A DNA stretch of 64,000 bases from Candidatus Omnitrophota bacterium (GCA_043803685.1 JAZDJU010000037.1:91746-155745), one strand, 5' to 3'; shown: positions 4,568 through 52,086, counted from the stretch's first letter. Made by a program: numbers and translations. Notes: generated by a model from the letters alone, not told the origin.

Positions 4568-4592
4568 AAAACCTCCGTCTACGACGTGCGCT

Positions 4593-6531: not shown

Positions 6532-6702
6532 CGTACGGCGCAAGGCGTACATCCTATCGCGAAGAACATTTTCTTTTTCTCCGCACGCCGTGCTCCGTAT
6601 GCGTAACGCTTTGTGATATAATCCGCCGACCGATACGAAGCTGTAATGGGTCAGGCACCAAGGTGCCCGACCCCCTCCTTCAGTCATTAAAAGGAAAATT
6701 CT

Positions 6703-6975
6703 ATGGATTGGAAGATCTTCTTAGCAACTTTAAGCGCTATTTTTTTCGCGGAACTGGCCGACAAAACCCAGCTCGTGAGTATCACGATGGCCTCCAAGAC
6801 CGGGAAGCCTCTTTCCGTGTTCCTGGGATCGATCGCGGGCTACGCGCTCGTAACCCTCATTTCGGTCATACTCGGAACTCTTCTGGCGAAATACGTAAAA
6901 CCCGAGTTCATACGCTACTGCGGCGCGACGGCGTTCGTGGTCATCGGGACGTTGATGTTTTTTAACAAACTGTAG
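6703..6975 (+). CDS. UPF0016/GDT1-TMEM165 family half-size membrane protein (putative Mn/Ca transporter subunit)
   Basis: 90 aa with the single signature E-x-G-D-K-T-like motif AELADKTQL. Confidence 0.8.
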   Translation: MDWKIFLATLSAIFFAELADKTQLVSITMASKTGKPLSVFLGSIAGYALVTLISVILGTLLAKYVKPEFIRYCGATAFVVIGTLMFFNKL

Positions 6976-6987
6976 ATAACTGCATAA

Positions 6988-7050
6988 CGCGCAACGGGCA
7001 ACGCACAACGGAAATGGTTTCGTTGCGCTTTGAACGTTGTACGTTGAGCG
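6988..7050. repeat. Intergenic array of complementary short words (CAACG x3 facing CGTTG x3)
   Basis: gcgcaacgggcaacgcacaacgg aaatggttt cgttgcgctttgaacgttgtacgttgagcg. Confidence 0.7.
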
Positions 7051-7066
7051 TAAAAAGGAGTGTTCC

Positions 7067-7147
7067 ATGGCCAAGAAAGCGAAAAAAGTTGCAAAAAAGA
7101 AAGTAACCAAGAAGAAAGCCGCAAAGAAATCCTGCTGCTGCCGTTAA
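7067..7147 (+). CDS. Mini-ORF, 26 aa Lys-rich peptide ending SCCCR
   Basis: AAAGGAG RBS 6 nt upstream of the ATG. Translation MAKKAKKVAKKKVTKKKAAKKSCCCR. Below the ORF-track size cutoff. Confidence 0.45.
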   Translation: MAKKAKKVAKKKVTKKKAAKKSCCCR

Positions 7148-7210
7148 TCATTCCGACGCCTCCGCGGAAGCTGGATCTTCTCCTCTTCCGCGGGGGAAGA
7201 GGTTCCCCCT

Positions 7211-7372
7211 ATGGAAAATACGAATTCTAAAAAAGAAAAGAAAAAAGGGTTTTTCGCGAAACTCTTCGAAAAGATCGACAAGAAGCTGGAAGACAAGGCG
7301 AAAAAATCCGGTTGCTGTTGCGCCCCTTCCAAGGATAAAAAAGACTCGGACGGAGATTCATGCTGCGGGTAG
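7211..7372 (+). CDS. Mini-ORF, 53 aa Lys-rich peptide with GCCC and C-terminal SCCG
   Basis: MENTNSKKEKKKGFFAKLFEKIDKKLEDKAKKSGCCCAPSKDKKDSDGDSCCG. Shares the AKKS-CCC motif with the preceding mini-ORF. Its last codons overlap the permease ATG. Confidence 0.45.
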   Translation: MENTNSKKEKKKGFFAKLFEKIDKKLEDKAKKSGCCCAPSKDKKDSDGDSCCG

Positions 7373-8319
7373 CCGCAGACTGGTGGGTCTACTCCGTTCT
7401 GAGGCTTCCGCACGACACGCTCAGGGCCGAGGCCCTTTCCTTTTTCATCTACGATTCCCTCAAAATTCTCATTCTGCTCTTCGTCATGATCGCGGGGATC
7501 GGCTTCCTCCGAACATTTCTTCCTCACGAAAGGATCAAGGGATGGCTGGAAAAAAAGACGGGGTGGGGGAATTTCCTGGCCGCTCTTTTCGGGGCCGTCA
7601 CTCCGTTCTGTTCATGTTCCTCGATCCCGATCTTCCTGGGATTCATCAAGGCCGGGATCCCTCTGGGGATCACGTTCTCGTTCTTGATCACTTCCCCGCT
7701 GATCAATGAATACCTGGTGGTGGTCATGCTCGGTTTTTTCGGATGGAAGATCACGGCGGTTTATATCCTGAGCGGCATGTTCCTCGGGACCGTGTGCGGC
7801 ATACTGCTCGGAAAAATGAAGCTCGAGGCCCATCTGGTGAATGATATACGGCCCGCCGACGGCCCGGTCGAGGCCTATCCGAATTCCACCGGTTTCGGAT
7901 CGAGGATCGCCTTCGGGATCGGCGAGGCCGTCTCGGTCATCAAAAAACTCTGGCTTTGGATATTGATCGGGGTCGGGATCGGCGCCGTCATCCATAACTA
8001 TGTCCCGGAAACCACGATCCAGAACTTGATCAGCAAGACCGGCGTTTTTTCCGTTCCCCTCGCGACCTTGCTCGGCGTCCCGATGTACGGAAGCTGCGCG
8101 GCGATCGTTCCGATCGCGGTCGTTCTCTTTCAAAAAGGTGTTCCGCTCGGCACCGCGCTCGCGTTCATGATGGCGGTTTCAGCCCTGAGCCTTCCCGAGG
8201 CCGTGATGCTCCGCCGGGCCATGAAACTGCCGCTCATCATGATCTTTTTCGGTATCACGACGGCGGGGATCATTCTCACGGGTTATCTTATTAATGCCCT
8301 GCAACCGTTCCTGACCTGA
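7360..8319 (+). CDS. ArsP_1/DUF318-type permease (YraQ-like)
   Basis: 319 aa polytopic protein with the vicinal-cysteine motif VTPFCSCSSIP and a second half containing PMYGSCAAIVP. Confidence 0.8.
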   Translation: MLRVAADWWVYSVLRLPHDTLRAEALSFFIYDSLKILILLFVMIAGIGFLRTFLPHERIKGWLEKKTGWGNFLAALFGAVTPFCSCSSIPIFLGFIKAGIPLGITFSFLITSPLINEYLVVVMLGFFGWKITAVYILSGMFLGTVCGILLGKMKLEAHLVNDIRPADGPVEAYPNSTGFGSRIAFGIGEAVSVIKKLWLWILIGVGIGAVIHNYVPETTIQNLISKTGVFSVPLATLLGVPMYGSCAAIVPIAVVLFQKGVPLGTALAFMMAVSALSLPEAVMLRRAMKLPLIMIFFGITTAGIILTGYLINALQPFLT

Positions 8320-8323
8320 ACCC

Positions 8324-9058
8324 ATGACGCATTCTCCTTACACCCAATGCCCGGTGCTCTTTGAAGACGCGGACCTTCTCGTCATCAACAAACCCGAAGG
8401 GGTTCTATCGCACCCGAATCCGGGAGGCAAAGGTCCCGGCGCGGCTTTCGAAGGTCCTTATGATCTCGGAGACAGGCGTTTTCAGACCCCCGGAGGTCCC
8501 CTCTGGTTGATCCACCGCTTGGATCAGGATACGTCCGGAACCCTTCTCGCCGCGAAAAACAAGAAAAGCGCCGCGGCCTGCCGTAACGCTTTTGACAAAA
8601 GAGAGGTCAAAAAAAATTACGTCGCCCTGGTCTCCAGGAAACCGATGCCACCCCACGGGATTTGGCGCGATACCCTCATGGAACAGCGATCCTCCGGCGG
8701 CGTCCGTTCGGCGATCAATTACGCGGGAAAGCCCAACGCTTTTTTGAATTACAAAATGAAGGAACATTTTCCGAAATATAATCTCTCGCTCCTCGAGATC
8801 GAACTGTTGACCGGAAAAACGCACCAGATCCGTGTGCAGTCGACCTACCGCGGTCATCCCGTAGCCGGCGACCGGATCTACGGAAATTTCACTCTGAACA
8901 AGGAATTGCGACAGGCGCTGGATCTTCACCGGATGTTCCTTCATGCCTGGCGGCTAGCCCTTCCTCATCCGGCAAGCGGCAAACTTCTCACAATCGAATC
9001 CCCGCTTCCCGAGGACCTTGAAGACTGCCTTCTCAGGGTCTCTTCCTCGAAACGATGA
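8324..9058 (+). CDS. RluA-family pseudouridine synthase
   Basis: Catalytic motif HRLDQDTSGTLL and KNYVALV. 244 aa. Confidence 0.88.
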   Translation: MTHSPYTQCPVLFEDADLLVINKPEGVLSHPNPGGKGPGAAFEGPYDLGDRRFQTPGGPLWLIHRLDQDTSGTLLAAKNKKSAAACRNAFDKREVKKNYVALVSRKPMPPHGIWRDTLMEQRSSGGVRSAINYAGKPNAFLNYKMKEHFPKYNLSLLEIELLTGKTHQIRVQSTYRGHPVAGDRIYGNFTLNKELRQALDLHRMFLHAWRLALPHPASGKLLTIESPLPEDLEDCLLRVSSSKR

Positions 9059-10695
9059 AGGTCCTGCTTTTACAGCCTCCGGTTCAGGACTTCTATAATA
9101 CGGACATCCGTCTGCAACCAATCGGTCTGGCGTATCTCAAGGCCGCCGCCAAAAAACATCTTCCGGACGTTCACGTCACGATCAAGGACTATCACCACGG
9201 GTGGGGCCGAAGAACGATCGCGCTTCCCCGGGAACTCGCCTACTTAAAAGATTTTTACGCCAAGGACGACAAAAGCCCGTTCTCGACCTTCCATCATTAT
9301 TATCATTTCGGCGTGGACTTTGAGACGGTCGCCCGAGAGGTCGCGAAAGCGAAGCCCGATCTCGTAGGTATCGCTGCCCTTTTCGCCCCTTATCACCGCG
9401 AGGTTCTCCGCTGCGCGGAAGCTATTAAAAAACTCTGCCAGGTCCCCATTCTGCTCGGAGGCAGCCAGGTCTCCGCCATGCCTGAACACATGCTTGAGCA
9501 TCCTGCGGTCGATTTCGTGATCCAGGGCGAGGGCGAAAAACCGTTCGTGGAACTTTTGAAGGCGCTAAAAAAGGGCGGGAATCCCAAGAAAGTGCAAAAT
9601 CTTGGATACAAAAAACGCGAGCAACTGTTCTTAAATCCCCGGGAGGAGAACTATCCGGTCGAGAGCCTACCTTTTCCCGATCTCACCGACCTGCCTCAAA
9701 GTCATTATCTCTTCGAAAAAAAACCTCTTTGCTTCATCATCACTTCCCGCGGCTGTCCCTACCGCTGCGCCTTCTGTTCCGTCCATAAAACATTCGGGCA
9801 CAAATGCCGCCGCCGTTCCGCGAAGAACATTCTGGCCGAGATCAAACAACGTTACGCCGAGGGCTACCGTGTCTTTGACTTTGAGGATGATAATCTCACG
9901 TTCGACCGGAATGAAATGACGGCTCTTTGCCAAGAACTCATCCGGTTATTCCCCCAAAAGGATATCCAGCTGCTTGCGATGAATGGCGTCTGCTACTGGA
10001 CGCTCGACCGCACGATCCTCAAGCTCATGCGACAGGCGGGATTCACGCACCTGAACCTTTCGCTCGTAAGCACGAACACCCAACTGCTCAAAACAGTCCA
10101 GAGGCCCGCCCCGCTCAAAAAATACCGCGAGGTGATCGGTCACGCGACCGCGCTTGGTTTCAAAACCGTTGCTTACCAGATCCTCGGTCTTCCGGGAGAC
10201 ACGCTCGCTTCGATGATCCGGACACTTATCTTTAATGCGGGACTTCCCGTGCTCTTGGGAGCCTCTCCCTTCTATCTCATTCCCCGTTCTCCCATCGCGC
10301 GGCACTTCGACGAGCCGTCGGAGGCGGATATCTACAAAGCTCGCCTGACAGCGATGGCCGTTGAAACAAAGGATTTCAAACGCGAGGACCTTTACACGCT
10401 CCTTATCACGACCCGCATTTTGAATTTCTTCAAAGGTCTGCCCCTTGCCGGAAGATCCGTGCCTCTCTCCAAGGCCCTCGCGATCGCCGAAATGCAGGAC
10501 AAGCGGTCAGCGACAGGCGCTGAGATTCTGAAGAGACTTCTAAAAGAAAAGGTTCTCTATGCGGCGACCTCCAAAGGCCTGGAGCCTCTTCCGCGTTTCC
10601 GGCCGGAACTTTTCTTCCGGCTGTGGCATAAGCTTGATATTATAAAAACTCAGTCCATGATCTCGATCCAAATTAAGGGAGGCCTGCGATGCTGA
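9055..10695 (+). CDS. B12-binding-domain radical SAM protein (function unknown)
   Basis: N-terminal MKVLLLQPP...IGLAYL Rossmann-like domain, then TSRGCPYRCAFCS (CxxxCxxC). ATGA overlap with rluA. Confidence 0.85.
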   Translation: MKVLLLQPPVQDFYNTDIRLQPIGLAYLKAAAKKHLPDVHVTIKDYHHGWGRRTIALPRELAYLKDFYAKDDKSPFSTFHHYYHFGVDFETVAREVAKAKPDLVGIAALFAPYHREVLRCAEAIKKLCQVPILLGGSQVSAMPEHMLEHPAVDFVIQGEGEKPFVELLKALKKGGNPKKVQNLGYKKREQLFLNPREENYPVESLPFPDLTDLPQSHYLFEKKPLCFIITSRGCPYRCAFCSVHKTFGHKCRRRSAKNILAEIKQRYAEGYRVFDFEDDNLTFDRNEMTALCQELIRLFPQKDIQLLAMNGVCYWTLDRTILKLMRQAGFTHLNLSLVSTNTQLLKTVQRPAPLKKYREVIGHATALGFKTVAYQILGLPGDTLASMIRTLIFNAGLPVLLGASPFYLIPRSPIARHFDEPSEADIYKARLTAMAVETKDFKREDLYTLLITTRILNFFKGLPLAGRSVPLSKALAIAEMQDKRSATGAEILKRLLKEKVLYAATSKGLEPLPRFRPELFFRLWHKLDIIKTQSMISIQIKGGLRC

Positions 10696-35154: not shown

Positions 35155-36660
35155 TTATAGATGCTTGAGACCCTTGAGAGCAGACATGTTCTTTGGATTG
35201 ACCCTCAGGGATTGATCAAAAAATGATCGCGCTCTTGCCCTGTTCTTTCTATATAATTCCAACCAGCCCATTTGGGCAAGAGCTTCATCATTTTTCGGAT
35301 TGAACCGTATCGCATGCGACAATAACCCCTCAGCATCAACAAATCTCCCCTGTCTGGAATAAATAGCCGCAAGGCTAACAACGGCCTTCTGATCGCGGGG
35401 ATTTAACAGCAATTCTTTTTTATATTGATCAACCTTCAAAGCGCTCAAGAATGCCCTGACCTTCGGATTGTCAGGTTTCAAATCTAGCGTCTTTTGAAAA
35501 TATTCCTGGGCCTTGGACGAATTCCCCTGCTTGAAATGGAGCTCCCCAAGCGCGGCGCAAGCGTGGTCGTTTTTAGGATCCAATTCGAACGTCTTCTGGA
35601 AATACGCCTGAGCCTTCGACAAATTCCCCTGCTTCAAATAGAGATCCCCAAGCGCGGTGCTAGCATGATCGTTTTTAGGATTCAATTCGAGAGACTTCTG
35701 GAAATACTCCTCGGCCTTCGACGAATCCCCCTGCTTCAAATAGAGATCCCCAAGCACGGCGCTAGCATGATCGTTTTTAGGATTCAATTTGAACGTCTTC
35801 TGATAATATTCCTGAGCCTTCGACAGATCCCCCTGCTTCAAATAGAGATTCGCAAGCGCAACGCAAGCATTATAGTTTTCCGGATTCAACTCGAACGCCT
35901 TCTGAAAATATTCCTGAGCCTTGGGCGAATCCCCCTGCCGCGAATAGAGATCCCCAAGCACGCTGCAAGCCCTATCATTCTGAGGATTCACATCTAAGGC
36001 CTTCGTTAAATATTCCCGAGCCCTGGACAAATCTCCTTGCTGAAAAAAGAAAGCCCCGAGCACAAGGCAAACGTAGTCATCGTTAGGATTCAAATCAACA
36101 GCCTTCTGAAAATATTCCTGGGCCTTGGACGAATCTCCTCGCCGCGAATAGAGATTCGCAAGCGCAACGCAAGCATTAGCGTTTTTGGGATTCAACTCGA
36201 ACGCCTTCTGAAAATATTCCTGAGCCTTGGACGAATCCCTCCCGAAATAGAGATCCCCAAGCACAACGCAAACCTTATCGTTTTTAGGATTCAACTCGAG
36301 AGCCTTCTGGAAATACGCCTGAGCCTTGGACGAATCCCCCCGCCCCAAATAGAGTTCCCCAAGTACAAAAAAAGCAGCATCATTTCGGGGGGACAATTCG
36401 ACTGCTTTCAAAAAAGCTTCTTCGGCCTGTTGGAATTTATTCGCCTCCTTATAAAATATCCCGAGATCGACGTAGCCTTTCCCGTTAGCGGGATCCTTGT
36501 CTATGCTCTTTTTAATTTCGCTCTCCATCAGATCATAGTCCGCTTGGGCATAGAGGGGCACGAAAGCAACCGCAAAAAAAACAACCATCATTGCCAGAAA
36601 CGCAACTCTCCCGCAGGACAATACCTCGCTAACCTTTAAACGTAATAGGATGTTCTTCAT
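35155..36660 (-). CDS. TPR-repeat protein made of near-identical tandem 34-aa units
   Basis: N-terminal anchor, then about 11 copies of GDSSKAQEYFQKAFELNPKND.AC..LGDLY... Confidence 0.85.
   Translation of the reverse strand: MKNILLRLKVSEVLSCGRVAFLAMMVVFFAVAFVPLYAQADYDLMESEIKKSIDKDPANGKGYVDLGIFYKEANKFQQAEEAFLKAVELSPRNDAAFFVLGELYLGRGDSSKAQAYFQKALELNPKNDKVCVVLGDLYFGRDSSKAQEYFQKAFELNPKNANACVALANLYSRRGDSSKAQEYFQKAVDLNPNDDYVCLVLGAFFFQQGDLSRAREYLTKALDVNPQNDRACSVLGDLYSRQGDSPKAQEYFQKAFELNPENYNACVALANLYLKQGDLSKAQEYYQKTFKLNPKNDHASAVLGDLYLKQGDSSKAEEYFQKSLELNPKNDHASTALGDLYLKQGNLSKAQAYFQKTFELDPKNDHACAALGELHFKQGNSSKAQEYFQKTLDLKPDNPKVRAFLSALKVDQYKKELLLNPRDQKAVVSLAAIYSRQGRFVDAEGLLSHAIRFNPKNDEALAQMGWLELYRKNRARARSFFDQSLRVNPKNMSALKGLKHL
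35460..36480. repeat. About 102 bp in-frame tandem repeats (TPR units)
   Basis: Recurring gaaaatattcctgagccttggacgaatc... blocks. Antisense ORFs show the same periodic peptide. Confidence 0.8.
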
Positions 36661-38010: not shown

Positions 38011-38847
38011 TCAGGGTCGCGTCCAAAAATATTTATTGGAGACCGCAAGATAAAAGCATCGCACAAGCTCGTAAGGGAGGAACAGAGCGTAGACCCGGAT
38101 CTTCCCCAAGAGATCTTCGTTCTTTTGGATCATCCAATGACGGTTGCGAAAACACAAATATTGCCGGAATTTCCCTCCTGTATCGGAGCTGTTGCCGGCA
38201 TGACAACACGTCATGTCCGGACAGAATTGGGCTTGCCATCCCGCCCGACTCGCCCTCCAGGCAAGGTCCACATCCTCAACAAGAAAGAAAAAACGTTCGT
38301 CAAAATAGCCTGTTTTTTCCCGGATCGCGTTGAGCATGGCCCTTCGATAAAAAGCAGCCGCGGAACAAGGACCGATGATCTTTTTTCCCGCAAGCCCGGG
38401 TCCATCCTTGGGTTTTCCTTGATTCAGATCATGGAACCTGCGACAGGCCGACAAATGGATCCCTTGGGAATAGACCGTTTTGCCATCCGCGCTCAGAACA
38501 TTCGGCTGGATCATCCCGACATCCTCGGAAAATCCTTTCCGTATTCGCTCGAACTCCGCAAGAAAACCGTCTCCAAGCACCACGTCATTGTCCAGGGCCA
38601 GAACCCAATCCCCTGAAGAACCTTCAATCCCCTGATTCCTGGCCTTGCTAGCGCCGAAATTCTTCGGGTTTTCGATCAAGTTCACGCCGGGAAAGTGCGT
38701 CTTGATGATCTCGCGCGTTTGATCCCGGGAATCGTTGTCGACCACCACGATCTCGATGTCCCGAGCGTCTTGGCGCATTATAGAATCCAGGCATGCCCGG
38801 ATAGAAGCTTGGCTGTTGAAGGTGATCACTACGATGGAGAGTCGCAT
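38011..38847 (-). CDS. GT2-family glycosyltransferase
   Basis: [40 protein letters not shown] (DxD). Confidence 0.88.
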
Positions 38848-40202
38848 TGGCCGGCGAAAACTCTATGAAGGTTCACTTTGATGTTTTCCAGATCCTCGGC
38901 GCTGAGGTCCTGGGTCCTCACAATACATTTTCTGTTGCCGTCATAGTCCTCCCAGTTGTCGGAAACCAACCATCCCTTTTCCACGGCATCGTTAAAATAG
39001 ACCGTTCCGGGAAATGGCACGGCAAATGAAAACTGAACCGAGTCAGGCTCCACCGATCGCGCAAAATCAATCGTACTCTGGATCGTCTGTCTTGTTTCTC
39101 CTGGAAGACCAACGCAGAACGTCAAATGAACTTTAATCCCCAGGCGTTTGGAGATCCCGATCATGGAACGGGCTTTCTCTAGATCCAGATTCTTCCCGCA
39201 CGACCGTCGGACCTCTTCATCCGCTGATTCGATGCCATACTTGACGGCGTAGACACCCGCGCGGGACATAAGCTCCAACAGCGCTTCATCCATCCTATCC
39301 GCGCGGGTCATCGCTCCCCAAGGAACATTCAATTTTCGTCTGAGGATCTCCTCGCAAATATTGACAACGTGCTCGCGGTCCCCATTGAAAGTTTCGTCAT
39401 CAAAATAGACCGATTTAAAATTAAAATGCCGGATCAGGTGCTCCATTTCATCAACGACGTCCAAAAAATTCCGTTTCCTGTACCCGCTCCCTTTATAGAG
39501 CGTCTGAGGAAGAAGGCAAAAGGAACATCGAAACAAACAGCCGCGACTGGCCAGCATCTGAACGCTCGGGCCTGGCAGTCCTGCGAAACCATCGTTGTAC
39601 TTATAGATGAGAGGCGCCGTTCTCTTGGGCCATGGCAAAACATCCAGATCATTAATGCACCCCCGGCGATCGCTCACAAAGATCTGCTCCCCTGCGCGAT
39701 AAGCCAATCCGGCTACATCGTCCAGTCCATGGCCTCGCTCAAGAGCCTCCACCAACTCGACCGCCGAACGTTCATACTCTCCGATGATCACATAATCGAT
39801 GGTAGGGTGTTCCGTTAAGATCTTTGCCGCAAACTCACCGGCATGCGCCCCGCACAACCCGATATGGACATTCTTCATCGCTTGCCGAAGTGCCGCAATG
39901 ATCCTTATATCATTTTTGAATGACGGCGCAGAGGTCTCGATCAGAACAAGCCCCGGATCGAACTCCCGGATCCTTTCAAGACAAAGAGGCTCGCTGATCT
40001 GCTCAGCGATCGCATCGATCAGTTTTACGGATTTCCCTTCTTTTTCTAATAAGGCGGCGGTATAAGCGAGAAAAAACGGAAAGGGGATATAGAGAAGACG
40101 CCCGTCTACCGCAGGCTTCGAAGTGAACGGCCAACGGGATCCAGCCCTGACCCCCAAACGTCCATCCTTAAACCATGGAAGATTTACGAGGGCCGTCTTC
40201 AT
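38829..40202 (-). CDS. B12-binding-domain radical SAM protein
   Basis: MKTALVNLPW..., cobalamin-domain-like N-terminus, ASRGCLFRCSFC. Start set at MKTAL, 1 nt after the upstream stop. The track's N-terminal extension is an out-of-frame read of the neighbouring repeats. Confidence 0.88.
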   Translation of the reverse strand: MKTALVNLPWFKDGRLGVRAGSRWPFTSKPAVDGRLLYIPFPFFLAYTAALLEKEGKSVKLIDAIAEQISEPLCLERIREFDPGLVLIETSAPSFKNDIRIIAALRQAMKNVHIGLCGAHAGEFAAKILTEHPTIDYVIIGEYERSAVELVEALERGHGLDDVAGLAYRAGEQIFVSDRRGCINDLDVLPWPKRTAPLIYKYNDGFAGLPGPSVQMLASRGCLFRCSFCLLPQTLYKGSGYRKRNFLDVVDEMEHLIRHFNFKSVYFDDETFNGDREHVVNICEEILRRKLNVPWGAMTRADRMDEALLELMSRAGVYAVKYGIESADEEVRRSCGKNLDLEKARSMIGISKRLGIKVHLTFCVGLPGETRQTIQSTIDFARSVEPDSVQFSFAVPFPGTVYFNDAVEKGWLVSDNWEDYDGNRKCIVRTQDLSAEDLENIKVNLHRVFAGQCDSPS

Positions 40203-40203
40203 C

Positions 40204-40866
40204 TTACTTGTTGAGATCGAGATGATTCTGAATTCGCTCGAAGAACTCCTTGATCTGATGAATACCCTGACTGATGTCCTTGGAATCACAGCTGATCTGT
40301 TCCGACGCTTGATAGATACTCTCGAACTGGTCCGGCGGAACCAGCTTAAGTTTGATCTCTTCCAACTGATCAAGCAGAACAAGTCTTTGCCTGATCTCTC
40401 CCAGCTGATCGAGCGGAACAAGCTTTTGTTTGATCTCTTCCAACCGATCAAGCGGAACAAGCTTTTGTTTGATCTCTTCCAACCGATCAAGCGCTACGAG
40501 CTTTTGCTTGATCTCTTCCAACCGATCGAGCGCCACGAGCCTTTGCTTGATCTCTTCCAACCGATCGAGCGCTACGAGCTTTTGCTTGATCTCTGCTAAC
40601 CGATCGAGCTGAACAAGTTTTTGATTGACCTCCTCCATTTTTTGACCCTGATCAAACATCATTTGCGCGAGATTGCCAAAAACCCTGATAACAACCGCGC
40701 AAAGAGAGCTTCCCACCATGATGAGGAAGCCGCTCACGAGCGACTCATGCCCGTTCGCCTTAAAAAAGATCCAATACGCGCCGACGAGAACGCCCAGTGC
40801 GGCAATCGCCCATGCATAAAGGCCCAAAACAAATACCGTAGGAATTTTTTTAGTTTTCATCGACAT
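40204..40866 (-). CDS. Membrane-anchored protein with about 7-8 tandem 13-residue repeats (LVALDRLEEIKQK)
   Basis: Two N-terminal TM helices, then a periodic, predicted-helical repeat array. Overlaps both flanking genes' boundaries. Confidence 0.75.
   Translation of the reverse strand: MSMKTKKIPTVFVLGLYAWAIAALGVLVGAYWIFFKANGHESLVSGFLIMVGSSLCAVVIRVFGNLAQMMFDQGQKMEEVNQKLVQLDRLAEIKQKLVALDRLEEIKQRLVALDRLEEIKQKLVALDRLEEIKQKLVPLDRLEEIKQKLVPLDQLGEIRQRLVLLDQLEEIKLKLVPPDQFESIYQASEQISCDSKDISQGIHQIKEFFERIQNHLDLNK
40338..40622. repeat. 39 bp in-frame tandem repeat, about 7 copies
   Basis: Unit cttttgtttgatctcttccaaccgatcaagcggaacaag with point variants. Confidence 0.85.
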
Positions 40867-43800
40867 TGTCCTTTTTGTTGATGTTCCGTTCGACTATAGC
40901 TTGAGAACTCTTGATCCGATCGATCAGATCGGACGATCGCATCAGATCCAACGATCGAAACTTTCCATCATCTAACCATGCTTTGATCGTTTGAGTAAGT
41001 TTCAAAAAAAACGGGTTAAGATGCGGATGCTCCCTTTCCAGCAACCCGATCCAGTCAGGACGTTCCCTGACAAGACCCATCAGCTTTTCCAGCAAAACAT
41101 CGTCGTGCGTGTTATAAACGGAGATCAGGAGATGTTTATAGAGCAATCGTTGAAACTCCGTCTCCCCAAACCTGTCGATGATCCAGCGGTTAAGCGCAAG
41201 GATCAAAGCAAATAAATTCAGGGAAAAGCTTTCCTTCGGAGAAAGCAGGCTGGATAGGGCGTTTCTCTTCCCGGCATAACGATAAAAGAACGTCAGATCG
41301 ATCAAGGCCAGCCAGGGTGACAACCTGGGCTCCTTCTTCGCGCCACTCACATCCGTATCGCGAAACATAAAATGTTCCAGATCCATTAAAGAGTGATGTA
41401 TCGCCAAAAAGAAGTCCAGATAAAGGAGTGCTTCCCGATGGTTCTCCAGATCCTCATCAAGATAGCGGTTGGCTAAGCCCACATTGTCCTTCATTTTCAG
41501 GGAAAAATTTTCCGGATCTAAAAAGAACTTTTGTTCATCATAATATTCGCGACGCCAGTTCCAGAAGGTTTTAAAAAGCGAGAAAATATCATCTCGCTTT
41601 AAGTGATGCGCGATCGCCCCGGCTTCATATCCCAGCACTTGTCCCGTTCCCATAAGACGCCGGCTCAGATTCACGTCCTCATAATTGTTCTTGAGCGTCT
41701 CATCATAAAAGCCTACATCCAGAACTACCTGACGACGCAATACGGTGTTGGCGCCAAACAAGAACTCAGGGACTTTGTTTTCTGGTTCCCAATACTGTTT
41801 CATGTGAACTGCGCGCCACTCGTCGAATACGGAAGAAGTCTTGCTCTCCAGCAACTTGCCTCCCATACCGCAAATGTTCGGGTCGTCAAACCTGCTCATC
41901 AAACGCGAAAGCCAGTCATGATCCGCAACGCAATCCGCATCCAGAGACGCGACAAACTCTGTGTTCATATTCTTAAGAGCCGTATTTCTGGCAGCAGCGA
42001 GACCCTTGTTAGTCTCATGGCGGAACAATCGCACGCCATAAGAGGACGCAATGTCACAAGTTCTGTCCGTCGACCCGTCATCCACCACGGCCACCTCTAC
42101 CACAGGATACGTTTGCCTGAAAACAGCCTCCAGACAGGCCGAGAGTGTTTTTTCTGCATTGTAGCAGGGGATATACAACCCCACTCGTTTTAGCGGCAGA
42201 GCCATGCCCGAGAAAACCCATTTGCCGTCTCGATTGATCGCCACGCCGTTGCAACCCTCGAGGGATCCGCCGGACTGAAGACGGAAAAGCACATTCAATA
42301 ATATTTGCTCGCCTTCTCCGGTGATAATAAAGTCCGCGAATTTCTGCAACCCATGCGGCAATAGAAGGTCACGATCATCCTGGGTTAAATTGTAACAACA
42401 GGTTCCTCCCAGAAGAATCTTCACCTCAGGATATCTGCTCTTTACTCTCTTGATGATCTCCAGAGTAAATAATGCGGAGGTTTTTTGGACTGAAAAACAG
42501 ATCACATCGGGAGTTACCGCAAGGATCCGATCCACACATTGCTCATAGACCTGTTCCGTGATGAACGGTAATTGATAAAAGCTGTCCTCTGAACACCACC
42601 GGTCTCTGTTATGGCTATCCCAATAAGTCTTATGATCGCCAGCCACCTCATGATAGACCATGATGTTTAAGTCAAGAACGCTCGCCTCACACCCATTGGC
42701 GTTGAGATAGGCCAGCCCCAAGGAAGGCCTTTCAACGCCGAAAGGACAAGGGCATTGGACGAGAGCTATTTTCATTATGCCGGGCCTCGCATTCTCGAGC
42801 CCTGCGTCAACAATGGAACTGCTGAAAAGTTTTCTCTTTTGCGAATAGTTGCTCTCAAGGTCGAAGTCGTCCCGATAAGAACACCACTGCAGACAAGGTT
42901 TGCTGCATTGGCGTATCAACTTTCGAAGATCCCTCGCGTTCGCCGAATACCAGAGATCTTTCAGGCTGTCTTTTTTCACATCCCCGAACGTCGCCTCATG
43001 GCTATTCTGGTTCACGCAAAAATAAAGCTTCCCCTCCTGAACCACTTGAATGCGATTGTATCCGGCATAACAAGGCCTCCCGGTGATCTTTGTCCGCCCC
43101 TGAAAATACTTTTTGATCGATTCCAGATTTTCGATCGCATTGGCAACAAGATCAAAATTGCACTCGTTCATTTTCTTAAATTGAATGATAGCATCGATGG
43201 AATCCTCCAGGAGCTTCAGCCTTGCTGGCGGTATACAGACCCCCGAATTCATTTCCGCCTTTTCCTGGTCCGTATTATCTCCCACCACGGGTTGAAAGAT
43301 CACGCTGGATATCTTTAAGCTTCGGCATAATTCGATGACATCCATAAGTTCGCCAGCATTTTGATCCATGATCGTACAGACGCAACAGATCGAGGGCGAA
43401 TACCTCCCTCTTTTCTCTTTCATTGCATTGATCAACTTCACATTGGCGATGATCTTTTCCAGATAATTCTGGCCCCGGATCTTCGAAAAAGATTCCTCCG
43501 TCGCCGCATCGATCGACACGCTCAAGTTGCTCAGATTCGCTTCGAACATTTTTTCAACGATCTTTTCGGACATGATCGTGCCGTTCGTTACCACCGTAAT
43601 GGAGGAGAATCCGCAATCCGCCGCAAAAGAGACCATCTCGAATAACCGCGGTTCCAGAAAAGGCTCCCCCCCGATCAAGATCAGCGCAGGGACCTTCATT
43701 TCCGCGCCTTCTTTAATAAGTTTCTTGATCGTCGAAATATCCAGATCCACCGGGCGATTCTGGGCCTTGAAAGACTCCTCCCTTTCGTGCATGCTGCACA

Positions 43801-43936
43801 TCGTGCACCTTAAATTACAACGGAAGGTGAAATTGATCTGAAGGGCATCTGCGGGAACAAGGGGATAATCGATCTTCCGGGAAAGCCGGAAAAATGAATT
43901 CCTTTCAAGCAATCGTTCAAACCTCTCCTTATCCAT
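40850..43936 (-). CDS. Multidomain fusion: radical SAM/SPASM + cobalamin-binding-like domain (no SAM core) + GT2 glycosyltransferase + helical C-terminal domain
   Basis: FRCNLRCTMCSMHE and CYAGYN...CSKPCLQWCSYR (aa 1-375). MKIALVQCPCPFG...ITGEGE (about aa 388-575). YIPCYNAEKTL, VVDDGSTDRT, LDADCV (about aa 582-800). 1028 aa in total. Confidence 0.85.
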   Translation of the reverse strand: MDKERFERLLERNSFFRLSRKIDYPLVPADALQINFTFRCNLRCTMCSMHEREESFKAQNRPVDLDISTIKKLIKEGAEMKVPALILIGGEPFLEPRLFEMVSFAADCGFSSITVVTNGTIMSEKIVEKMFEANLSNLSVSIDAATEESFSKIRGQNYLEKIIANVKLINAMKEKRGRYSPSICCVCTIMDQNAGELMDVIELCRSLKISSVIFQPVVGDNTDQEKAEMNSGVCIPPARLKLLEDSIDAIIQFKKMNECNFDLVANAIENLESIKKYFQGRTKITGRPCYAGYNRIQVVQEGKLYFCVNQNSHEATFGDVKKDSLKDLWYSANARDLRKLIRQCSKPCLQWCSYRDDFDLESNYSQKRKLFSSSIVDAGLENARPGIMKIALVQCPCPFGVERPSLGLAYLNANGCEASVLDLNIMVYHEVAGDHKTYWDSHNRDRWCSEDSFYQLPFITEQVYEQCVDRILAVTPDVICFSVQKTSALFTLEIIKRVKSRYPEVKILLGGTCCYNLTQDDRDLLLPHGLQKFADFIITGEGEQILLNVLFRLQSGGSLEGCNGVAINRDGKWVFSGMALPLKRVGLYIPCYNAEKTLSACLEAVFRQTYPVVEVAVVDDGSTDRTCDIASSYGVRLFRHETNKGLAAARNTALKNMNTEFVASLDADCVADHDWLSRLMSRFDDPNICGMGGKLLESKTSSVFDEWRAVHMKQYWEPENKVPEFLFGANTVLRRQVVLDVGFYDETLKNNYEDVNLSRRLMGTGQVLGYEAGAIAHHLKRDDIFSLFKTFWNWRREYYDEQKFFLDPENFSLKMKDNVGLANRYLDEDLENHREALLYLDFFLAIHHSLMDLEHFMFRDTDVSGAKKEPRLSPWLALIDLTFFYRYAGKRNALSSLLSPKESFSLNLFALILALNRWIIDRFGETEFQRLLYKHLLISVYNTHDDVLLEKLMGLVRERPDWIGLLEREHPHLNPFFLKLTQTIKAWLDDGKFRSLDLMRSSDLIDRIKSSQAIVERNINKKDNVDEN

Positions 43937-46739: not shown

Positions 46740-47858
46740 TTATTTAAAAAGCCTCGTTTTCTGCCAATGGCTGGTCACAAGGTCGAAGTCGTCCCGCCAA
46801 GAACACCTCTGCATACAGGGTTTCCGGCATTGGCGTATCAACTTGCGCAGTTCCCTCGCCTTCTCCGAATACCAGAGATCTTTCAAACTGTCATTTTTCA
46901 CATCCCCGAACGTTGCCTCATGGCTATTCTGGTCCACGCAAAAATAAAGCTTTCCCTCCTGAACCACTTGAATGCGATTGTACCCGGAATAACAAGGCTT
47001 TCTGTTGATCTTTGTCCGTCCCTGAAAATACTTTTTGATCGTCTCCAGATTTTCGATCGTATTGATGATAAAATCGAAATTGTGCTCGTTCATTTTTTTA
47101 AATTGAATGATCGCGTCAATGGAATCCTCCAACAGCTTCAGCCTTGCTGGCGGTATGCGAACCCCCGAATTTATTTCCGCCTTTTCCTGATCCGTGTTAT
47201 CTCCCACCACCGGCTGAAAAGCCACATGAGCTATCTTCAAACTGCGGCATAATTCGATCACATCCATCAGCTCCTCGATATTCTGGTCCATGATCGTACA
47301 GGAGCAACAGATCAAGGGGGAATGGCTCCCGATTCTTTCTTTCACTTTGTTGATCAGCTTCACATTGGCGATGATCTTGTTCAGATAGGCCTGTCCTCTG
47401 ATCCTGGAAAATGTTTCTTCACTGGCCCCATCGATCGACAAGGTTAAATTGCTCCCTGTCGCTTCGGACATTTTCTCCACGATCTTTTCGGACATGATCG
47501 TGCCGTTCGTTACCACGATAATAGAGGAGAATCCGCAATCCACCGCAAAAGAGACCATCTCGAACAACCGCGGATCCAGAAAAGGCTCCCCCCCGATCAA
47601 GAGAAGCGAAGGGATCTTCATCTCCGCGCCCTCTTTGATAAGTTTCTTGATCGTCGAAATATCCAGATCGACCGGGCGATTCTGGGCCTTGAAAGACTCC
47701 TCCCTTTCGTGCATGTTACACATCGTGCACCTTAAATTACAACGGAAGGTGAAATTGATCTGAAGAGTATCCGGGGGAACCAGGGGATAATCTTTCTTAC
47801 GCGAAAGCCGGAACAATACATTCCTGTCAAGCAATCGCTGAAGCTTCTTGTTATCCAT
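46740..47858 (-). CDS. Radical SAM/SPASM-domain protein (paralogue of the N-terminal third of 40850..43936)
   Basis: FRCNLRCTMCNMHE, CYSGYN...CRKPCMQRCSWR. Start set at MDNKKLQ, overlapping the wzt-like stop by 8 nt. Confidence 0.88.
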   Translation of the reverse strand: MDNKKLQRLLDRNVLFRLSRKKDYPLVPPDTLQINFTFRCNLRCTMCNMHEREESFKAQNRPVDLDISTIKKLIKEGAEMKIPSLLLIGGEPFLDPRLFEMVSFAVDCGFSSIIVVTNGTIMSEKIVEKMSEATGSNLTLSIDGASEETFSRIRGQAYLNKIIANVKLINKVKERIGSHSPLICCSCTIMDQNIEELMDVIELCRSLKIAHVAFQPVVGDNTDQEKAEINSGVRIPPARLKLLEDSIDAIIQFKKMNEHNFDFIINTIENLETIKKYFQGRTKINRKPCYSGYNRIQVVQEGKLYFCVDQNSHEATFGDVKNDSLKDLWYSEKARELRKLIRQCRKPCMQRCSWRDDFDLVTSHWQKTRLFK

Positions 47859-47912
47859 TTTTCCTTTCTGAGCCTTTTGTATCGCCGCTGGATTCCTGGA
47901 TAACGATTCTCG
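46744..47912. repeat. Segmental duplication, copy B
   Basis: See copy A. Spans the whole SPASM gene plus the last ~55 nt of the ABC ATPase gene. Confidence 0.8.
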
Positions 47913-50607
47913 CCATAAGATCGATCTTTTCCTCCGGGCGAAGCTTTCCCGGATTCCTTTCAAGATACTGCAAAACTCTGCCGCGATGATAAAGATCCGA
48001 GTTCACAATATTCAGGGTCTTGGTAATGCTAGGCCCGCATGGCCCTATGCGGACTTCCGGCAATCCCGCTGCCGATACAGCCACCCATCCGTCAGGAACC
48101 CCTTCTTTATTGTCTGTAGAGTAAACAACCTCCCAATCATCGTCAATATTCGCTTTGAACGGGGGGAGGATGCCGCTCACGCCATGCGCCCGCCACGCAT
48201 CATACCTTTCTGAAAGCATGATATTGGTCTGTATACGATCCATTTCTATATCCTCGTTGACGATCATTGAGGCGCGAAGTTCGACCGTATGGCTGTCGGT
48301 GATCTTGATCTCCCAGGATTGAATCAAGGGTAACTGAAGCCAGTTTCCGTGAGCCATGAGCGTGTGATCATCGACATTTTCGACCCTCCAGAACGCCGAA
48401 GAAACCGAGGAATGCCAACGCCCCTGACAACGCAAGGCGGTATAGAAACCGAGTTCTTTGGTTAACTCTTTCCCTTTCCAATACAAACGCCCTTGCCCTC
48501 GGTCGAAACAAAAACTCAATTCACCGCGATCGATCTTGCTCACGACTTTACTTTCAACCGTGGCCCTTTTCTTTCCAAATGAGATCTCGGCATCAAAGCA
48601 AGATCGCTCTCCCGGGAGAAGCAGCTCCTGGCCTTCGCCTCCGATCCTGTAAATACGTATTTCACGCGATCGGGAAAAAATGTCGGCGTTGAATATTTTC
48701 ACAAAGCTATCATCAGCCTGGGCGACCTTCATGACCGCGGCCGGGACGCCCTCGGCCCTGCTCGCCACTCCGAGCTCAGGCTGCCGGATACACTTCTGAA
48801 GAACATCCACTTCATGCTCCAGAAACTCTTCCGGGAAATCATGCTCCACGGCCCCATAAAACCAGGACGTATATTCCTTGCTGAGCGTCCAATTCAGCAT
48901 CTGTTGTTCCACGCAAACTTCTTCACTGACCCGCAAGAAAACGTTGAGGCGAAAAGCGTCTTCTCCGACCGCCTCGATCTCCCAGATCTGGATGAACGGC
49001 GCATCCGGCCAGATCACCTGAGCGATCATTTTATGGGGCCCGGCCTTTTCGGGCTTCCATTTTGCCAAAGTCGAAAAGTATCTTCGCCCGCCCGCATGGA
49101 CCGATGACGCGATGGACTGGATCGCGGACGGACCAAACTTTTTACAGGTGATATCGCATCGCCCATGTTCAAAAACCAGCTTTGTGGTGTTGAGCTCTAT
49201 CGCATAACCCGCCTGCAGATCATTCAAATATTGTTCCGGGTCGGAAACGTCCAGGAGGATCCTGCCTGAAAACCAATACGCTTGGTCTGCACGCGAAACA
49301 TTACTATGCTGCCTACGGAGGATCGTGTATTGAAGGACTCTGCAATCGGCCAGAGAGTCCGAATTAAAGACCTGCCCCTGGGCTCCCAACGAAGAGTCCC
49401 GGGATTCAAAGATCAGCCCGGGCAATCCCGCGTCCGCCGCCTCTTGGGGCATCACACCCATACATTCATGAGCGGCTCTCTTTTCAGTGAGCGGTTGCCA
49501 GTCATGACTGTTTTCATCAATGACCGGAAAATGACCTTTCTCAGAAGGAGTGAACCAGTCGGCATATTCTTTTTGAAGTAAAAGATTAAGATAGCCCTCC
49601 TGAATGTCCAAGGGCTCGTCCGCCTGGATCTCCACATCCCATTTCACTTCAGAGTTCTCATGGATCTCCATCTTCCAGATCTGGGTCAGTCCCAGTTGGA
49701 AGAGCCTCCCCCGGGCCACGAACCGTGTCTCGCTCTCTTTTTGAACTTCCCAATCCGCCTGAAAAGAATGATAGCTCTTCCCGTCGACAAAAAAACGGGT
49801 GTATCCTCCGGCATTCGAAGTCACCGGCTTATCTTTCCAGTTAAGGAACAGCCTTCCGTTATTAAAAATAACGGAAAAAGGTCCTTGCGTCAGGATCGCG
49901 ATCGTATCTTTGGCTCCGATCATCTGCGCATAAAAAGGAATGACCTTCTCTGCCAGGTCATCTTTGATGACCCTTCCTTCCCTGATGAAAAGAACCCGCT
50001 TGCAAAGCTTTCGGAGCATATGCATATCATGCGTCACGCAAACGATCGTCGCGCCGGAATCCCTGAGTTCAAAGATCCTTTTAATGCATTTCCTTTGAAA
50101 ATACTCATCCCCCACGGCCAGAATATCATCAATGACCAATATCTCAGGCTCCACATGGATCGCGGCGGAAAAGGCCAGGCGGACAAACATGCCCTGGGAA
50201 TAACACTTCACCGGCGCATCAATAAATTTCCCGATATCGGCAAAGCTGATGATCTTTTCGCAGGCGACCTCGAGCTTCGCGGGGTCCATTCCCGATAGAC
50301 TCAGATTCAAGTGGATGTTATCTCTCCCGGTCAGCTCCGGCTGAAAGCCAGCTCCCATCTCCAAAAGCCCGGCCACTCTGCCGTCCACCTTGACTTCGCC
50401 CCGATCCGGTTTTAAGAGCCCCGCAATGATCTTCAGGATCGTCGTTTTTCCGGACCCATTTTCCCCGATGATCCCTATCGTTTCGGAAGGCTCGATCTTG
50501 AAGCTGATCCCCTTTAAAGCCCAGTAATTCTCCCAGGAAACTTTGCCGGCGAGCACGAACTTGATCCGGTACATTTCCCAAACATCATGAAAATTTATGA
50601 TAGCCAT
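47851..50607 (-). CDS. Wzt/TagH-type polysaccharide-export ABC ATPase with a C-terminal extension of about 670 aa made of three repeated modules
   Basis: GENGSGKTT, YSQGMFVRLAFS, LVIDDILAVGDEYFQRKC. The C-terminus carries three copies of a module with Q(I/S)W(K/E)(M/I)E ... (K/E)(E/R)Y..W ... (F/L)P. Confidence 0.85.
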   Translation of the reverse strand: MAIINFHDVWEMYRIKFVLAGKVSWENYWALKGISFKIEPSETIGIIGENGSGKTTILKIIAGLLKPDRGEVKVDGRVAGLLEMGAGFQPELTGRDNIHLNLSLSGMDPAKLEVACEKIISFADIGKFIDAPVKCYSQGMFVRLAFSAAIHVEPEILVIDDILAVGDEYFQRKCIKRIFELRDSGATIVCVTHDMHMLRKLCKRVLFIREGRVIKDDLAEKVIPFYAQMIGAKDTIAILTQGPFSVIFNNGRLFLNWKDKPVTSNAGGYTRFFVDGKSYHSFQADWEVQKESETRFVARGRLFQLGLTQIWKMEIHENSEVKWDVEIQADEPLDIQEGYLNLLLQKEYADWFTPSEKGHFPVIDENSHDWQPLTEKRAAHECMGVMPQEAADAGLPGLIFESRDSSLGAQGQVFNSDSLADCRVLQYTILRRQHSNVSRADQAYWFSGRILLDVSDPEQYLNDLQAGYAIELNTTKLVFEHGRCDITCKKFGPSAIQSIASSVHAGGRRYFSTLAKWKPEKAGPHKMIAQVIWPDAPFIQIWEIEAVGEDAFRLNVFLRVSEEVCVEQQMLNWTLSKEYTSWFYGAVEHDFPEEFLEHEVDVLQKCIRQPELGVASRAEGVPAAVMKVAQADDSFVKIFNADIFSRSREIRIYRIGGEGQELLLPGERSCFDAEISFGKKRATVESKVVSKIDRGELSFCFDRGQGRLYWKGKELTKELGFYTALRCQGRWHSSVSSAFWRVENVDDHTLMAHGNWLQLPLIQSWEIKITDSHTVELRASMIVNEDIEMDRIQTNIMLSERYDAWRAHGVSGILPPFKANIDDDWEVVYSTDNKEGVPDGWVAVSAAGLPEVRIGPCGPSITKTLNIVNSDLYHRGRVLQYLERNPGKLRPEEKIDLMARIVIQESSGDTKGSERKNG

Positions 50608-50655
50608 TCATCACCTTATGCCCGTTCAGATTCTCATTAAATCCATAACATTATT

Positions 50656-52086
50656 TTAACGGCTAAAAGCCTCTTCAGATACGGGAATCCCTAAAATATC
50701 CCGAAGGATCACCTTGGCGATATTCCCGGCCAGGATCGTATTGCCCAAATCGGTGCAGTGACCAAAGTCCGCAGCAAACCTGTCCCTGAAGATCTCTTCG
50801 AATCGGTATTTCTTGAGCGCATCCTTAAATAGCTTTTCATTATCGACAAAACTGACGTTTTGACCGTGGTCCGCAGAAAAAATCCTCCTTAAGGGTTCTA
50901 TGTCCCGCATAGGATACTGCACGCAAACAAGACGTATCCCGTGTTCATCGAGCAGTTTCTTTATCTTACGATAATTTTCCACTGTCATCGATTCGTAACC
51001 TTGAGGAGCCAGGGCATGGCCCTGAGCAAGATAATCATCGCTCAGCTTGGATTTCCCCAAAGCGCGGTAAACATAAGCCAGGCCAAAATAGGGTCTATAA
51101 TCCGACTGATGGCTAAGCTCAATGGATTCTTTATAATTCGCTATAGCTTCCTCGTACCGGCCCTGTGCCGCAGCTATTTCTCCAGAATAGTAACTGATCC
51201 ATCCGGCGTGGCAGTGGCTTCTGAGAACCTTCAGCAAGGATTCCGCTTCGACATTTTTATGTACAGTGTTCAACTGACCCAGCAAATATCCCGCATACGG
51301 ATTCTCTTCCGGACATGCCGTGAATATTTTCTTGAACTTCTCGACCATTGCTTGGAGCATTGCTTCCTGCTCCTTGGGCTTGCATTGAAACATCCACCTG
51401 AAAAATGCGTCCGTATTCAAGGGATTGAGCGTGACAGCCTGACAGAATGTGGATCTGGCCTCATGCTCCTTCCCCTGAGCCTGCAACCGCATGCCAAGCT
51501 TTAGATAATAAACATCATCTCTGGACGCAGCGACAGGCGCTTCAGATCGAGGCTTACCCATAACCATGCGTTTTATTTCCTCAAACTTGGCCTGAATGTG
51601 CGCGCAAAGTAACTGCATGAGCCTATGCGTTTTAAAAGACTGGGCAAAACTTCGGTTGCAGGTGGCAAATCCGGCGGGCATATGCTTGGCACCCGCATCA
51701 TTAATGCCGATCATGGCCACCACCATATCGGGCTTGTATTTCCTGATATTGCTTTCCATTTTCTCGAAAATAACATCGGTATTGGTCGCGATCAGACCTT
51801 CATCGGTCACACTAAATCGCGTTTGGGTCTGACGGGCATTCAGTATCTTTTCAAGGAACCGTGGGTATTGCGCCTGAGTCGTCGACTCTCCAACGCACAG
51901 GATCCGATAGGAACCCCCGGTTTTCAGGGTGGCCCAATTTTTATATTGCTGCACAGCCCTGATGAAAAAACCCGATGCCTGGAGGCCCATCTCAAGCATA
52001 GCGAGAGCAAGCAACACTCCGAACAATACCAGCGCCACTCTTTGCCCGAAAGAGCTCGCTTTAGAAATTTTTTGCTTCTTTTTCAC
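50656..52086 (-). CDS. Membrane-anchored SGNH/GDSL-like hydrolase with inserted TPR region
   Basis: ILCVGESTT (block I), MIGINDAG (block III), DFGHCT (block V DxxH). TPR-like helices lie between blocks III and V. Confidence 0.7.
   Translation of the reverse strand: MKKKQKISKASSFGQRVALVLFGVLLALAMLEMGLQASGFFIRAVQQYKNWATLKTGGSYRILCVGESTTQAQYPRFLEKILNARQTQTRFSVTDEGLIATNTDVIFEKMESNIRKYKPDMVVAMIGINDAGAKHMPAGFATCNRSFAQSFKTHRLMQLLCAHIQAKFEEIKRMVMGKPRSEAPVAASRDDVYYLKLGMRLQAQGKEHEARSTFCQAVTLNPLNTDAFFRWMFQCKPKEQEAMLQAMVEKFKKIFTACPEENPYAGYLLGQLNTVHKNVEAESLLKVLRSHCHAGWISYYSGEIAAAQGRYEEAIANYKESIELSHQSDYRPYFGLAYVYRALGKSKLSDDYLAQGHALAPQGYESMTVENYRKIKKLLDEHGIRLVCVQYPMRDIEPLRRIFSADHGQNVSFVDNEKLFKDALKKYRFEEIFRDRFAADFGHCTDLGNTILAGNIAKVILRDILGIPVSEEAFSR

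Follow-up and report, generated by a model that had tools for sequence, protein, structure and literature searches.

A repeat-bearing two-helix membrane protein as a candidate tether for radical SAM and glycosyltransferase enzymes in Omnitrophota glycan loci

In glycan pathways that depend on ATP-binding cassette (ABC) transporters, a lipid carrier bears the growing glycan, which is assembled on the cytoplasmic side of the membrane. WbdD, the chain-length-regulating kinase/methyltransferase of the Escherichia coli O9a O antigen, contains a coiled-coil ruler (PMC3482155, PMC5082667); it carries its own catalytic domains, binds the membrane via its C-terminal region and forms a canonical trimeric coiled coil. 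Polyprenyl-phosphate family 2 glycosyltransferases (GT2s) of the ArnC, GtrB and DPMS type combine a GT2 domain with a C-terminal hairpin of two transmembrane (TM) helices, and the precursors of ribosomally synthesised and post-translationally modified peptides (RiPPs) such as mycofactocin MftA and SCIFF are encoded by small genes, coupled upstream of a radical S-adenosylmethionine (SAM) gene, whose products bear a C-terminal Cys motif. A repeat protein that recalls each of these systems in part is encoded on the minus strand at 40204-40866 of a 64,000-nucleotide stretch of Candidatus Omnitrophota DNA (GCA_043803685.1 JAZDJU010000037.1:91746-155745; referred to here as the window). This 663-nt open reading frame (ORF; 220 amino acids, P0001) is translationally coupled between two radical SAM genes, as proposed in an initial annotation made from the DNA alone. 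Like WbdD, it would be a membrane-associated cytoplasmic protein of a glycan pathway that depends on an ABC transporter, with a helical spacer between the membrane contact and a would-be modifying end, and with spacer length as the natural variable. It differs from WbdD in having an N-terminal two-TM anchor and no catalytic domain recognisable by Pfam or NCBIfam, which would require the enzyme to dock in trans, and in a repeat period of 13 residues that lies outside the coiled-coil range; no sequence similarity between the two was found.

On profile evidence, the repeat protein belongs to a family of small two-helix membrane proteins that is undescribed and essentially limited to Omnitrophota. 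An exhaustive search of 1.84 billion representatives with a six-member profile returned 160 proteins at E values up to 1e-3 and 126 at E values up to 1e-10, and a word-indexed search of 5.8 billion proteins returned only one close relative (P0003). Genomes of the same genus encode proteins with the two-TM hairpin and without the 13-residue repeats, each adjoining radical SAM genes. The architecture common to the family is an N-terminal two-TM hairpin, a linker of 10-227 residues (median 75) and a conserved C-terminal heptad helix. The repeat protein itself has no Pfam match at E values up to 0.01 and no NCBIfam match, and canonical members gave no Pfam family above threshold, no sequence relative in the PDB and no significant fold match (Foldseek against the PDB). 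Sub-threshold matches to DAD1/OST2 (E about 0.005), ESCRT-III (E 0.12) and HEF_HK (E 0.0065-0.09) were taken as non-significant helical or TM noise. Public databases list members as 'hypothetical' or, for P0040 (NCBI MBL7197361.1), under the name 'apolipoprotein A1/A4/E family protein', and all organisms named are Candidatus Omnitrophota. When 185,579 species genomes were scanned with a pattern based on a 10-sequence alignment, six loci were located, five of them in Omnitrophota metagenome-assembled genomes (MAGs) and one in a MAG labelled Planctomycetales. The latter (L080, CAZNGC010000056.1, 'uncultured Planctomycetales bacterium'), a match to the C-terminal motif, bears the sole non-Omnitrophota label for the family and reflects either mis-binning or a true occurrence beyond the phylum.

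Conservation is concentrated at the two ends of the protein. The two-TM hairpin (40666-40839, minus strand; residues about 10-67) was delineated by hydropathy, the positive-inside rule, family alignments and AlphaFold2 (AF2), and hydropathy yields two TM stretches, roughly residues 8-37 and 41-67, in agreement with the two helices proposed initially. Its signatures are MPTT..FSW..G and ..RMFANIGQ.LFD, and near-invariant positions in or near the hairpin are P9, A57, R61, Q68 and F71 (alignments A2 and A3), with R61 invariant and P9, A57 and F71 at least 90% conserved; the window protein aligns across the whole hairpin, and the N-terminal sub-profile matches its gene at E 9e-27. At the extreme C-terminus, a second conserved motif (40207-40305, minus strand; residues 188-220, SEQISCDSKDISQGIHQIKEFFERIQNHLDLNK; alignments A2 and A3) forms the protein end within the unique, non-repetitive 40-residue tail (residues 181-220) that follows the repeats. 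The window match to this motif reads SCDSKDISQGIHQIKEFFERIQNHLDLNK (C-motif sub-profile E 2.8e-18), and the family consensus is EQINCDSKDINQNIxQIKxFFEQIExHLDLKK or, in its shorter form, CDSKD(I/M)NQNIxQIKxFFEQIExHLDLKK, one spelling of which has H at the first x. C193, D194, D197, F208, F209 and I212 are near-invariant, the hydrophobic spacing read from the sequence is 4-3-4-3-4, i.e. three heptads, and AF2 covers the motif with one helix (178-215). The tail is identical in P0003, and the motif occurs in two to three copies in P0010, P0011, P0023, P0026, P0027 and P0030.

The gene occupies a fixed place in its surroundings. Upstream lies a gene for a 1028-residue fusion of radical SAM/SPASM, B12-binding-like and GT2 parts (40850-43936, minus strand; Pfam), the GT2 part of which (residues about 576-1028; 40853-42211) corresponds to a free-standing GT2 of about 440 residues that precedes the family member elsewhere. 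Downstream is a 457-residue B12-binding radical SAM enzyme without TM segments (38829-40202, minus strand; Pfam and NCBIfam), for which the nearest model is HpnJ-like and the score far under the cut-off of that family. The stop codon TAA of the repeat gene is followed by G and then by the ATG of the downstream gene, leaving 1 nt between them, and its start lies inside the 3' end of the upstream gene (junction ATGTCGATGAAAACTAA), in support of the co-expression with the flanking enzymes that was proposed initially. The conserved start is probably the second ATG, at 40860-40858, predicted to give a protein of 218 residues beginning MKTKKIPT; this is the form of the gene caller (P0002), it matches the beginning of the orthologues, and it overlaps the upstream gene by 11 nt. 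Across the family, stop/start coupling to the B12-binding radical SAM gene is conserved as ATGA, TAATG or TAAGATG. Neighbour maps, in which ORFs were labelled only by similarity to proteins of the window and many stayed unlabelled, revealed four contexts. With X denoting the family member, the first, SPASM-SPASM-GT2(~440 residues)-X-B12 radical SAM(~452)-GT2(~290), is found in the window, there with the GT2 as part of the 1028-residue fusion, and in 14 or more further loci of several Omnitrophota families; the second is TPR-X-B12 radical SAM(~500); in the third, a short X of about 99 residues with a different tail stands between Wzt and a B12 radical SAM/SPASM fusion of about 920 residues; and in the fourth X lies beside SPASM radical SAM genes. 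When family members were sought in syntenic loci, as had been suggested, they were present in nearly all; the downstream B12-binding radical SAM gene has 15 stand-alone orthologues at 49% identity or more, and X immediately precedes 13 of them.

A further link comes from P0118, a 506-residue protein in which a GT2 is joined in frame to the N-terminus of the two-TM hairpin, without linker or C-terminal motif, at the same cassette position. This fusion occurs in three assemblies whose source runs carry consecutive accessions (L070:6001-7521, L071:2321-3841 and L072:1339-2859; Logan ERR7850082-84), where the B12-binding radical SAM gene begins 14 nt later. As read from the gene structure, it links the hairpin functionally to the GT2. 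The order of parts in P0118 is that of the ArnC, GtrB and DPMS-type enzymes; in this family, by contrast, GT2 and hairpin are separate overlapping genes except in the single chain of P0118, and the described enzymes have neither the long spacer nor the C-terminal heptad motif. Fold matches to ArnC were non-significant (E about 4-5), and the GT2 is weakly similar to DPMS (E 1.5e-4). A glycocin-type S-glycosyltransferase role for the GT2 was considered and dropped, the PDB hits being generic GT2s (chondroitin and heparosan synthases, GalT1), none of them annotated as a glycocin or peptide S-glycosyltransferase.

Judged by its predicted gene content, the cluster is that of an ABC-transporter-dependent glycan pathway, comprising a Wzt ATPase with a long C-terminal extension (47851-50607), an epimerase, GT2s, and YdjC and SGNH hydrolases. 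An ABC-2 permease of the Wzm type (PF01061) is encoded on the same strand 3.3 kb past window position 64000 (G000:C37:159053-159670, minus strand), so that the cluster continues outside the window and a permease lies near the Wzt ATPase; the repeat protein itself was rejected as a Wzm candidate, given that it has no Pfam hit and that a true PF01061 gene lies just outside. Throughout the 27-kb cluster of the window, TM segments occur only in the repeat protein (two) and in two SGNH-TPR proteins (one anchor each), and none of the glycosyltransferases, radical SAM enzymes or the Wzt ATPase has one.

The N-terminus of the repeat protein carries two to three Lys/Arg and no acidic residues, and the loop between the helices is short. 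As the N-terminus is positive, and as a GT2, which uses nucleotide sugars, is fused there in P0118, the N-terminus would be cytoplasmic; with two TM helices the C-terminus, hence the tail, would then be cytoplasmic as well. We favour, with a probability of about one half, the reading that the repeat protein acts as an inner-membrane tether or adaptor for the flanking soluble GT2 and B12-binding radical SAM glycan-tailoring enzymes, because of its fixed place before the radical SAM gene, the conserved coupling, the GT2 fusion and the restriction of conservation to the anchor and the terminal helix. The two-helix hairpin would sit in the membrane with both ends in the cytoplasm, and a largely helical spacer would project from the second TM helix and end in the three-heptad amphipathic helix at the extreme C-terminus. 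Hairpin and terminal helix would together hold the soluble GT2 and the radical SAM enzyme at the cytoplasmic membrane face, where a lipid-linked glycan would presumably be built for the Wzm/Wzt exporter; both physical binding to the enzymes and a lipid-linked glycan as their substrate are inferred. The conserved, and presumably functional, parts would be the hairpin and the terminal helix rather than the 13-residue units. As the spacer tolerates large changes in length across the family, the array would lengthen the tether and add no new site.

Several observations weigh against this reading. The family is patchy, being found in 28 of 401 Omnitrophota genomes (7%) and in 20 of 282 genera. The protein is not obligatory, since an otherwise syntenic cassette in genome G366 (L065) lacks it, and an orthologous B12-binding radical SAM gene in G223:C7 (L064) stands in a different context without a family member. 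The C-terminal motif is missing from the short subfamily as well as from the GT2 fusion, and the topology proposed above would rest on the positive-inside rule and a single fusion. Moreover, a small ORF before a radical SAM gene, combined with a conserved Cys in a C-terminal motif, is the classic layout of a modified-peptide precursor. The G366 cassette (G366:C10:22000-32000), the one syntenic cassette found without a family gene, consists of a 1048-residue SPASM-GT2 fusion (ORF 2748-5894) that closely resembles the 1028-residue protein of the window, a 63-nt gap and the B12-binding radical SAM gene (5957-7303).

Between the two conserved ends, the linker of the window protein is taken up by eight in-frame units of 13 residues (39 bp each; 40327-40638, minus strand; residues 77-180), delimited by Tandem Repeats Finder (TRF) and by the protein register. 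In order they are MEEVNQKLVQLDR, LAEIKQKLVALDR, LEEIKQRLVALDR, LEEIKQKLVALDR, LEEIKQKLVPLDR, LEEIKQKLVPLDQ, LGEIRQRLVLLDQ and LEEIKLKLVPPDQ. The array is not a product of chance, as it forms part of the coding sequence, keeps the frame and belongs to a gene that related genomes share. By TRF, the period is 39 bp over 40335-40637 (7.8 copies, 84% matches, no indels), which bears out the initial description of in-frame 13-residue repeats and corrects that of a near-perfect DNA unit: adjacent units are alike at 28-37 of 39 nt (32-37 for the five central ones), and units that are only 84% alike give no demonstration of rapid slippage.

Repeat number does vary among relatives, as a comparison proposed with the initial annotation bears out. 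An orthologue on a syntenic metagenome contig (L009:3860-4237), the start of which was misplaced by the gene caller, encodes 125 residues with a single unit, KLEEIKERLTQLD; its 11-nt overlap with the upstream GT2 and its TAA-G-ATG junction are as in the window, and the flanking B12-binding radical SAM enzyme is 75% identical to that of the window. P0003 has about five units and a duplicated larger block, so that within one clade the count is 1, about 5 and 8. In G304, the closest relative in GTDB (B12-binding radical SAM enzyme 72% identical), the linker consists of KLEELRQGLSRLDN followed by short LEKLGR/LEKLDR units. Across the family, clear and unrelated tandem repeats occupy the linker in 27 of 148 representatives (about one in five), with periods of 7, 10, 11, 13, 14, 15, 18, 22, 25, 26, 29, 40 and 44 residues and, in one further member, 1.9 copies of a 36-residue unit; most periods are 7-, 11- or 18-based and compatible with coiled coils, and among these 148 representatives the 13-residue period is confined to the clade of the window. 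By this comparison, the array is a recent lineage-specific tandem expansion of one ancestral unit in a variable linker. One-unit orthologues, and members with unrelated repeats or none, make it unlikely that the units are substrate or docking sites, as had also been suggested; the hairpin and the C-terminal heptad helix would be the conserved candidates for either role.

Long arrays also occur at other loci, reaching at least 483 residues in L057, 389 in L051 and 371 in L061. The Asn/Thr/Gln-rich array of L057 (G377:C7, ORF 7962-9410) runs off its contig, and that of L051 (G272:C15, ORF 7983-9149), with at least six units of about 40 residues, has an assembly gap (a run of N) within it; copy numbers in MAG genes with such very long arrays are probably unreliable. 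P0040 carries ten 11-residue units (LQTLNQDLNTH), and tandem 11-residue amphipathic-helix repeats are what some family members have in common with apolipoprotein A1/A4/E (PF01442). P0040 nevertheless reaches only 45.2 bits against a cut-off of 90 and the window protein gives no hit, and the resemblance is probably one of repeat composition alone, the database name being an annotation artefact.

The main interest of the repeats is thus less in themselves than in the family they revealed, a putative Omnitrophota-restricted membrane partner of B12-binding radical SAM and GT2 enzymes which public annotation leaves unnamed or misleadingly named ('apolipoprotein A1/A4/E family'). Omnitrophota glycan loci are packed with soluble radical SAM enzymes, for which a dedicated small membrane partner would be a concrete experimental handle. 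The family also forms a natural series, in which one anchor and one terminal helix are combined with spacers of 10 to more than 400 residues and many repeat types, and thereby offers material for testing whether tether length matters in a membrane-bound glycan pathway.

The precursor-like layout raises an alternative in which the protein would be a membrane-anchored ribosomal substrate, its C-terminal motif (Cys/Ser-Asp-Ser-Lys-Asp...) being glycosylated by the GT2 and/or modified by the B12 or SPASM radical SAM enzymes in a RiPP-like manner. The small ORF lies directly upstream of a radical SAM gene and is translationally coupled to it, the motif is strongly conserved with a near-invariant Cys and is present in two to three copies in some members, and the locus holds many SPASM radical SAM genes for which the nearest models include peptide maturases, all far under their cut-offs; the best NCBIfam model for the GT2, likewise under cut-off, is the mycofactocin glycosyltransferase MftF. 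We nonetheless regard this alternative as unlikely. Several members have S, N, G, L or D in place of the motif Cys, and the B12-binding radical SAM partner is retained in the short subfamily and the GT2 fusion although both are without the motif, so that no acceptor residue is invariant across the members that retain the maturase. Unlike RiPP precursors, proteins of this family are 100-480 residues long and bear a two-TM hairpin conserved as strongly as the motif, which would be unusual for a leader peptide, and in one lineage that hairpin is fused to a GT2. No gene for a leader peptidase or recognition element was seen in the neighbour maps, where labels came only from similarity to window proteins and many ORFs stayed unlabelled. 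The other genes of the cluster (epimerase, GT2s, YdjC, SGNH, Wzm/Wzt) are indicative of a glycan pathway, and the downstream enzyme is nearer to HpnJ-type sugar or lipid enzymes than to peptide methylases.

The tether reading has a special case, in which tether length (number of spacer residues multiplied by rise per residue) would set the distance of the B12-binding radical SAM enzyme, acting in chain modification or termination, from the membrane and hence the chain length of the glycan, with repeat number tuning the length of the polymer. The initial annotation had proposed a scaffold or ruler of this kind: the scaffold or tether part remains the best reading, the gene being kept in nearly all syntenic clusters, whereas a canonical coiled coil like that of WbdD found no support, hydrophobic power being about zero at 3.5-3.75 residues. 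The type of cluster would suit a ruler, with the extended Wzt and a Wzm gene 3.3 kb past the window, and in one subfamily the family gene lies between Wzt and the B12-binding radical SAM gene. No feature of the family varies more than linker length (10-227 residues), most linker periods are 7-, 11- or 18-based, and WbdD provides the precedent (PMC5082667, PMC3482155). The array itself argues otherwise. Over residues 77-180, Fourier power of hydrophobicity appears only at 13/k (182 at 2.6, 167 at 3.25 and 137 at 6.5 residues), amounts to 0.8-5.8 at 3.5-3.75 residues, and so falls outside the span of 3.33 to about 3.8 residues per turn expected along a coiled coil. About 10/3 (3.33) is the lower limit of coiled-coil periodicities (Hartmann et al. 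2016, PMC4786415), and since the hydrophobic period of 13/4 = 3.25 is below it, a canonical coiled coil along the array is unlikely.

Structure prediction supports the helical character that had been expected of the protein, and adds a second difficulty for a ruler. With a 50-sequence family alignment, AF2 reached a mean pLDDT (its per-residue confidence score) of 85.4 and predicted helices at 9-35 and 40-134 (pLDDT above 90), 153-175 and 178-215; the second TM helix extends as a single helix through the first four to five units, to residue 134, and the helix breaks at 135-152, at Pro-containing units, so that the spacer may fall short of a rigid rod. A model from the single sequence was similar, with lower confidence (pLDDT 69.6). 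The short subfamily and the GT2 fusion, furthermore, work with almost no spacer, and chain termination by the radical SAM enzyme and its binding to the C-terminal motif are hypothetical. A ruler function is therefore improbable.

A more elaborate version of the ruler, which we hold to be doubtful and somewhat harder to sustain, would make the system a split, modular counterpart of WbdD, in which anchor and tunable spacer present a docked B12-binding radical SAM capping or tailoring enzyme at a set distance and the spacer in the clade of the window is a heptad-plus-hexad alpha/beta coiled coil. Alpha/beta coiled coils are heptads interrupted by inserts of 6 or 9 residues that form beta-layers, and 6-residue inserts in heptads are described as breaking the helix in this way (Hartmann et al. 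2016, PMC4786415). The likeness lies in 13 = 7 + 6: each unit may be parsed as a-g (LEEIKQK) followed by L-V-A/P + L-D-R, a hexad which, on a sequence reading only, resembles the tested hexad M-A-T + K-D-D (PMC4786415), the would-be beta-layer having a small hydrophobic residue at its centre. Such a structure for the array is a speculative possibility, and the AF2 monomer, in contrast, draws the Ala-containing units as a continuous helix. Were this version true, gain and loss of repeats would rewrite glycan length in Omnitrophota, and the array would be a natural alpha/beta coiled coil whose spacing has no natural precedent so far.

That the array is a contingency (phase-variable) locus driven by slipped-strand mispairing, or that its copy number is an assembly artefact, is very unlikely: in-frame units would indeed allow gain or loss without breaking the frame, units 5 and 6 have an exact run of 43 nt in common, the longest at an offset of 39 nt, and the run of N in L051 shows that such arrays are hard to assemble, but the units of the window are 72-95% identical and each is distinguishable, which argues against both rapid slippage and assembler collapse, the array contains no N or indels, the known relatives differ at the scale of species (flanking enzyme 75% identical to that of L009) rather than strains, and an exact 20-mer from the repeat gave three chance matches in JGI metagenome contigs, with no family gene and no other allele.

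Three further features of the genome may be recorded. A second, short paralogue of the family (about 99 residues, MRTASLLKH...) lies in the same genome (C100:49228-53405, minus strand) between a gene for a Wzt-like ATPase of 380 residues and a B12-binding radical SAM/SPASM gene; the latter appears to be divided between two ORFs (50999-51925 and 49228-50949), as would result from a frameshift, a pseudogene or an error of assembly. In the window, the 3' end of the 1028-residue upstream gene, before the overlap, contains an 18-bp tandem repeat (40917-40958, 2.4 copies, CGATCGATCAGATCCAA). At the edge of the same cluster, a TPR gene (35155-36660) with a 102-bp tandem repeat (35473-36368, 8.8 copies, 78% matches) is a second repeat-expanded gene.

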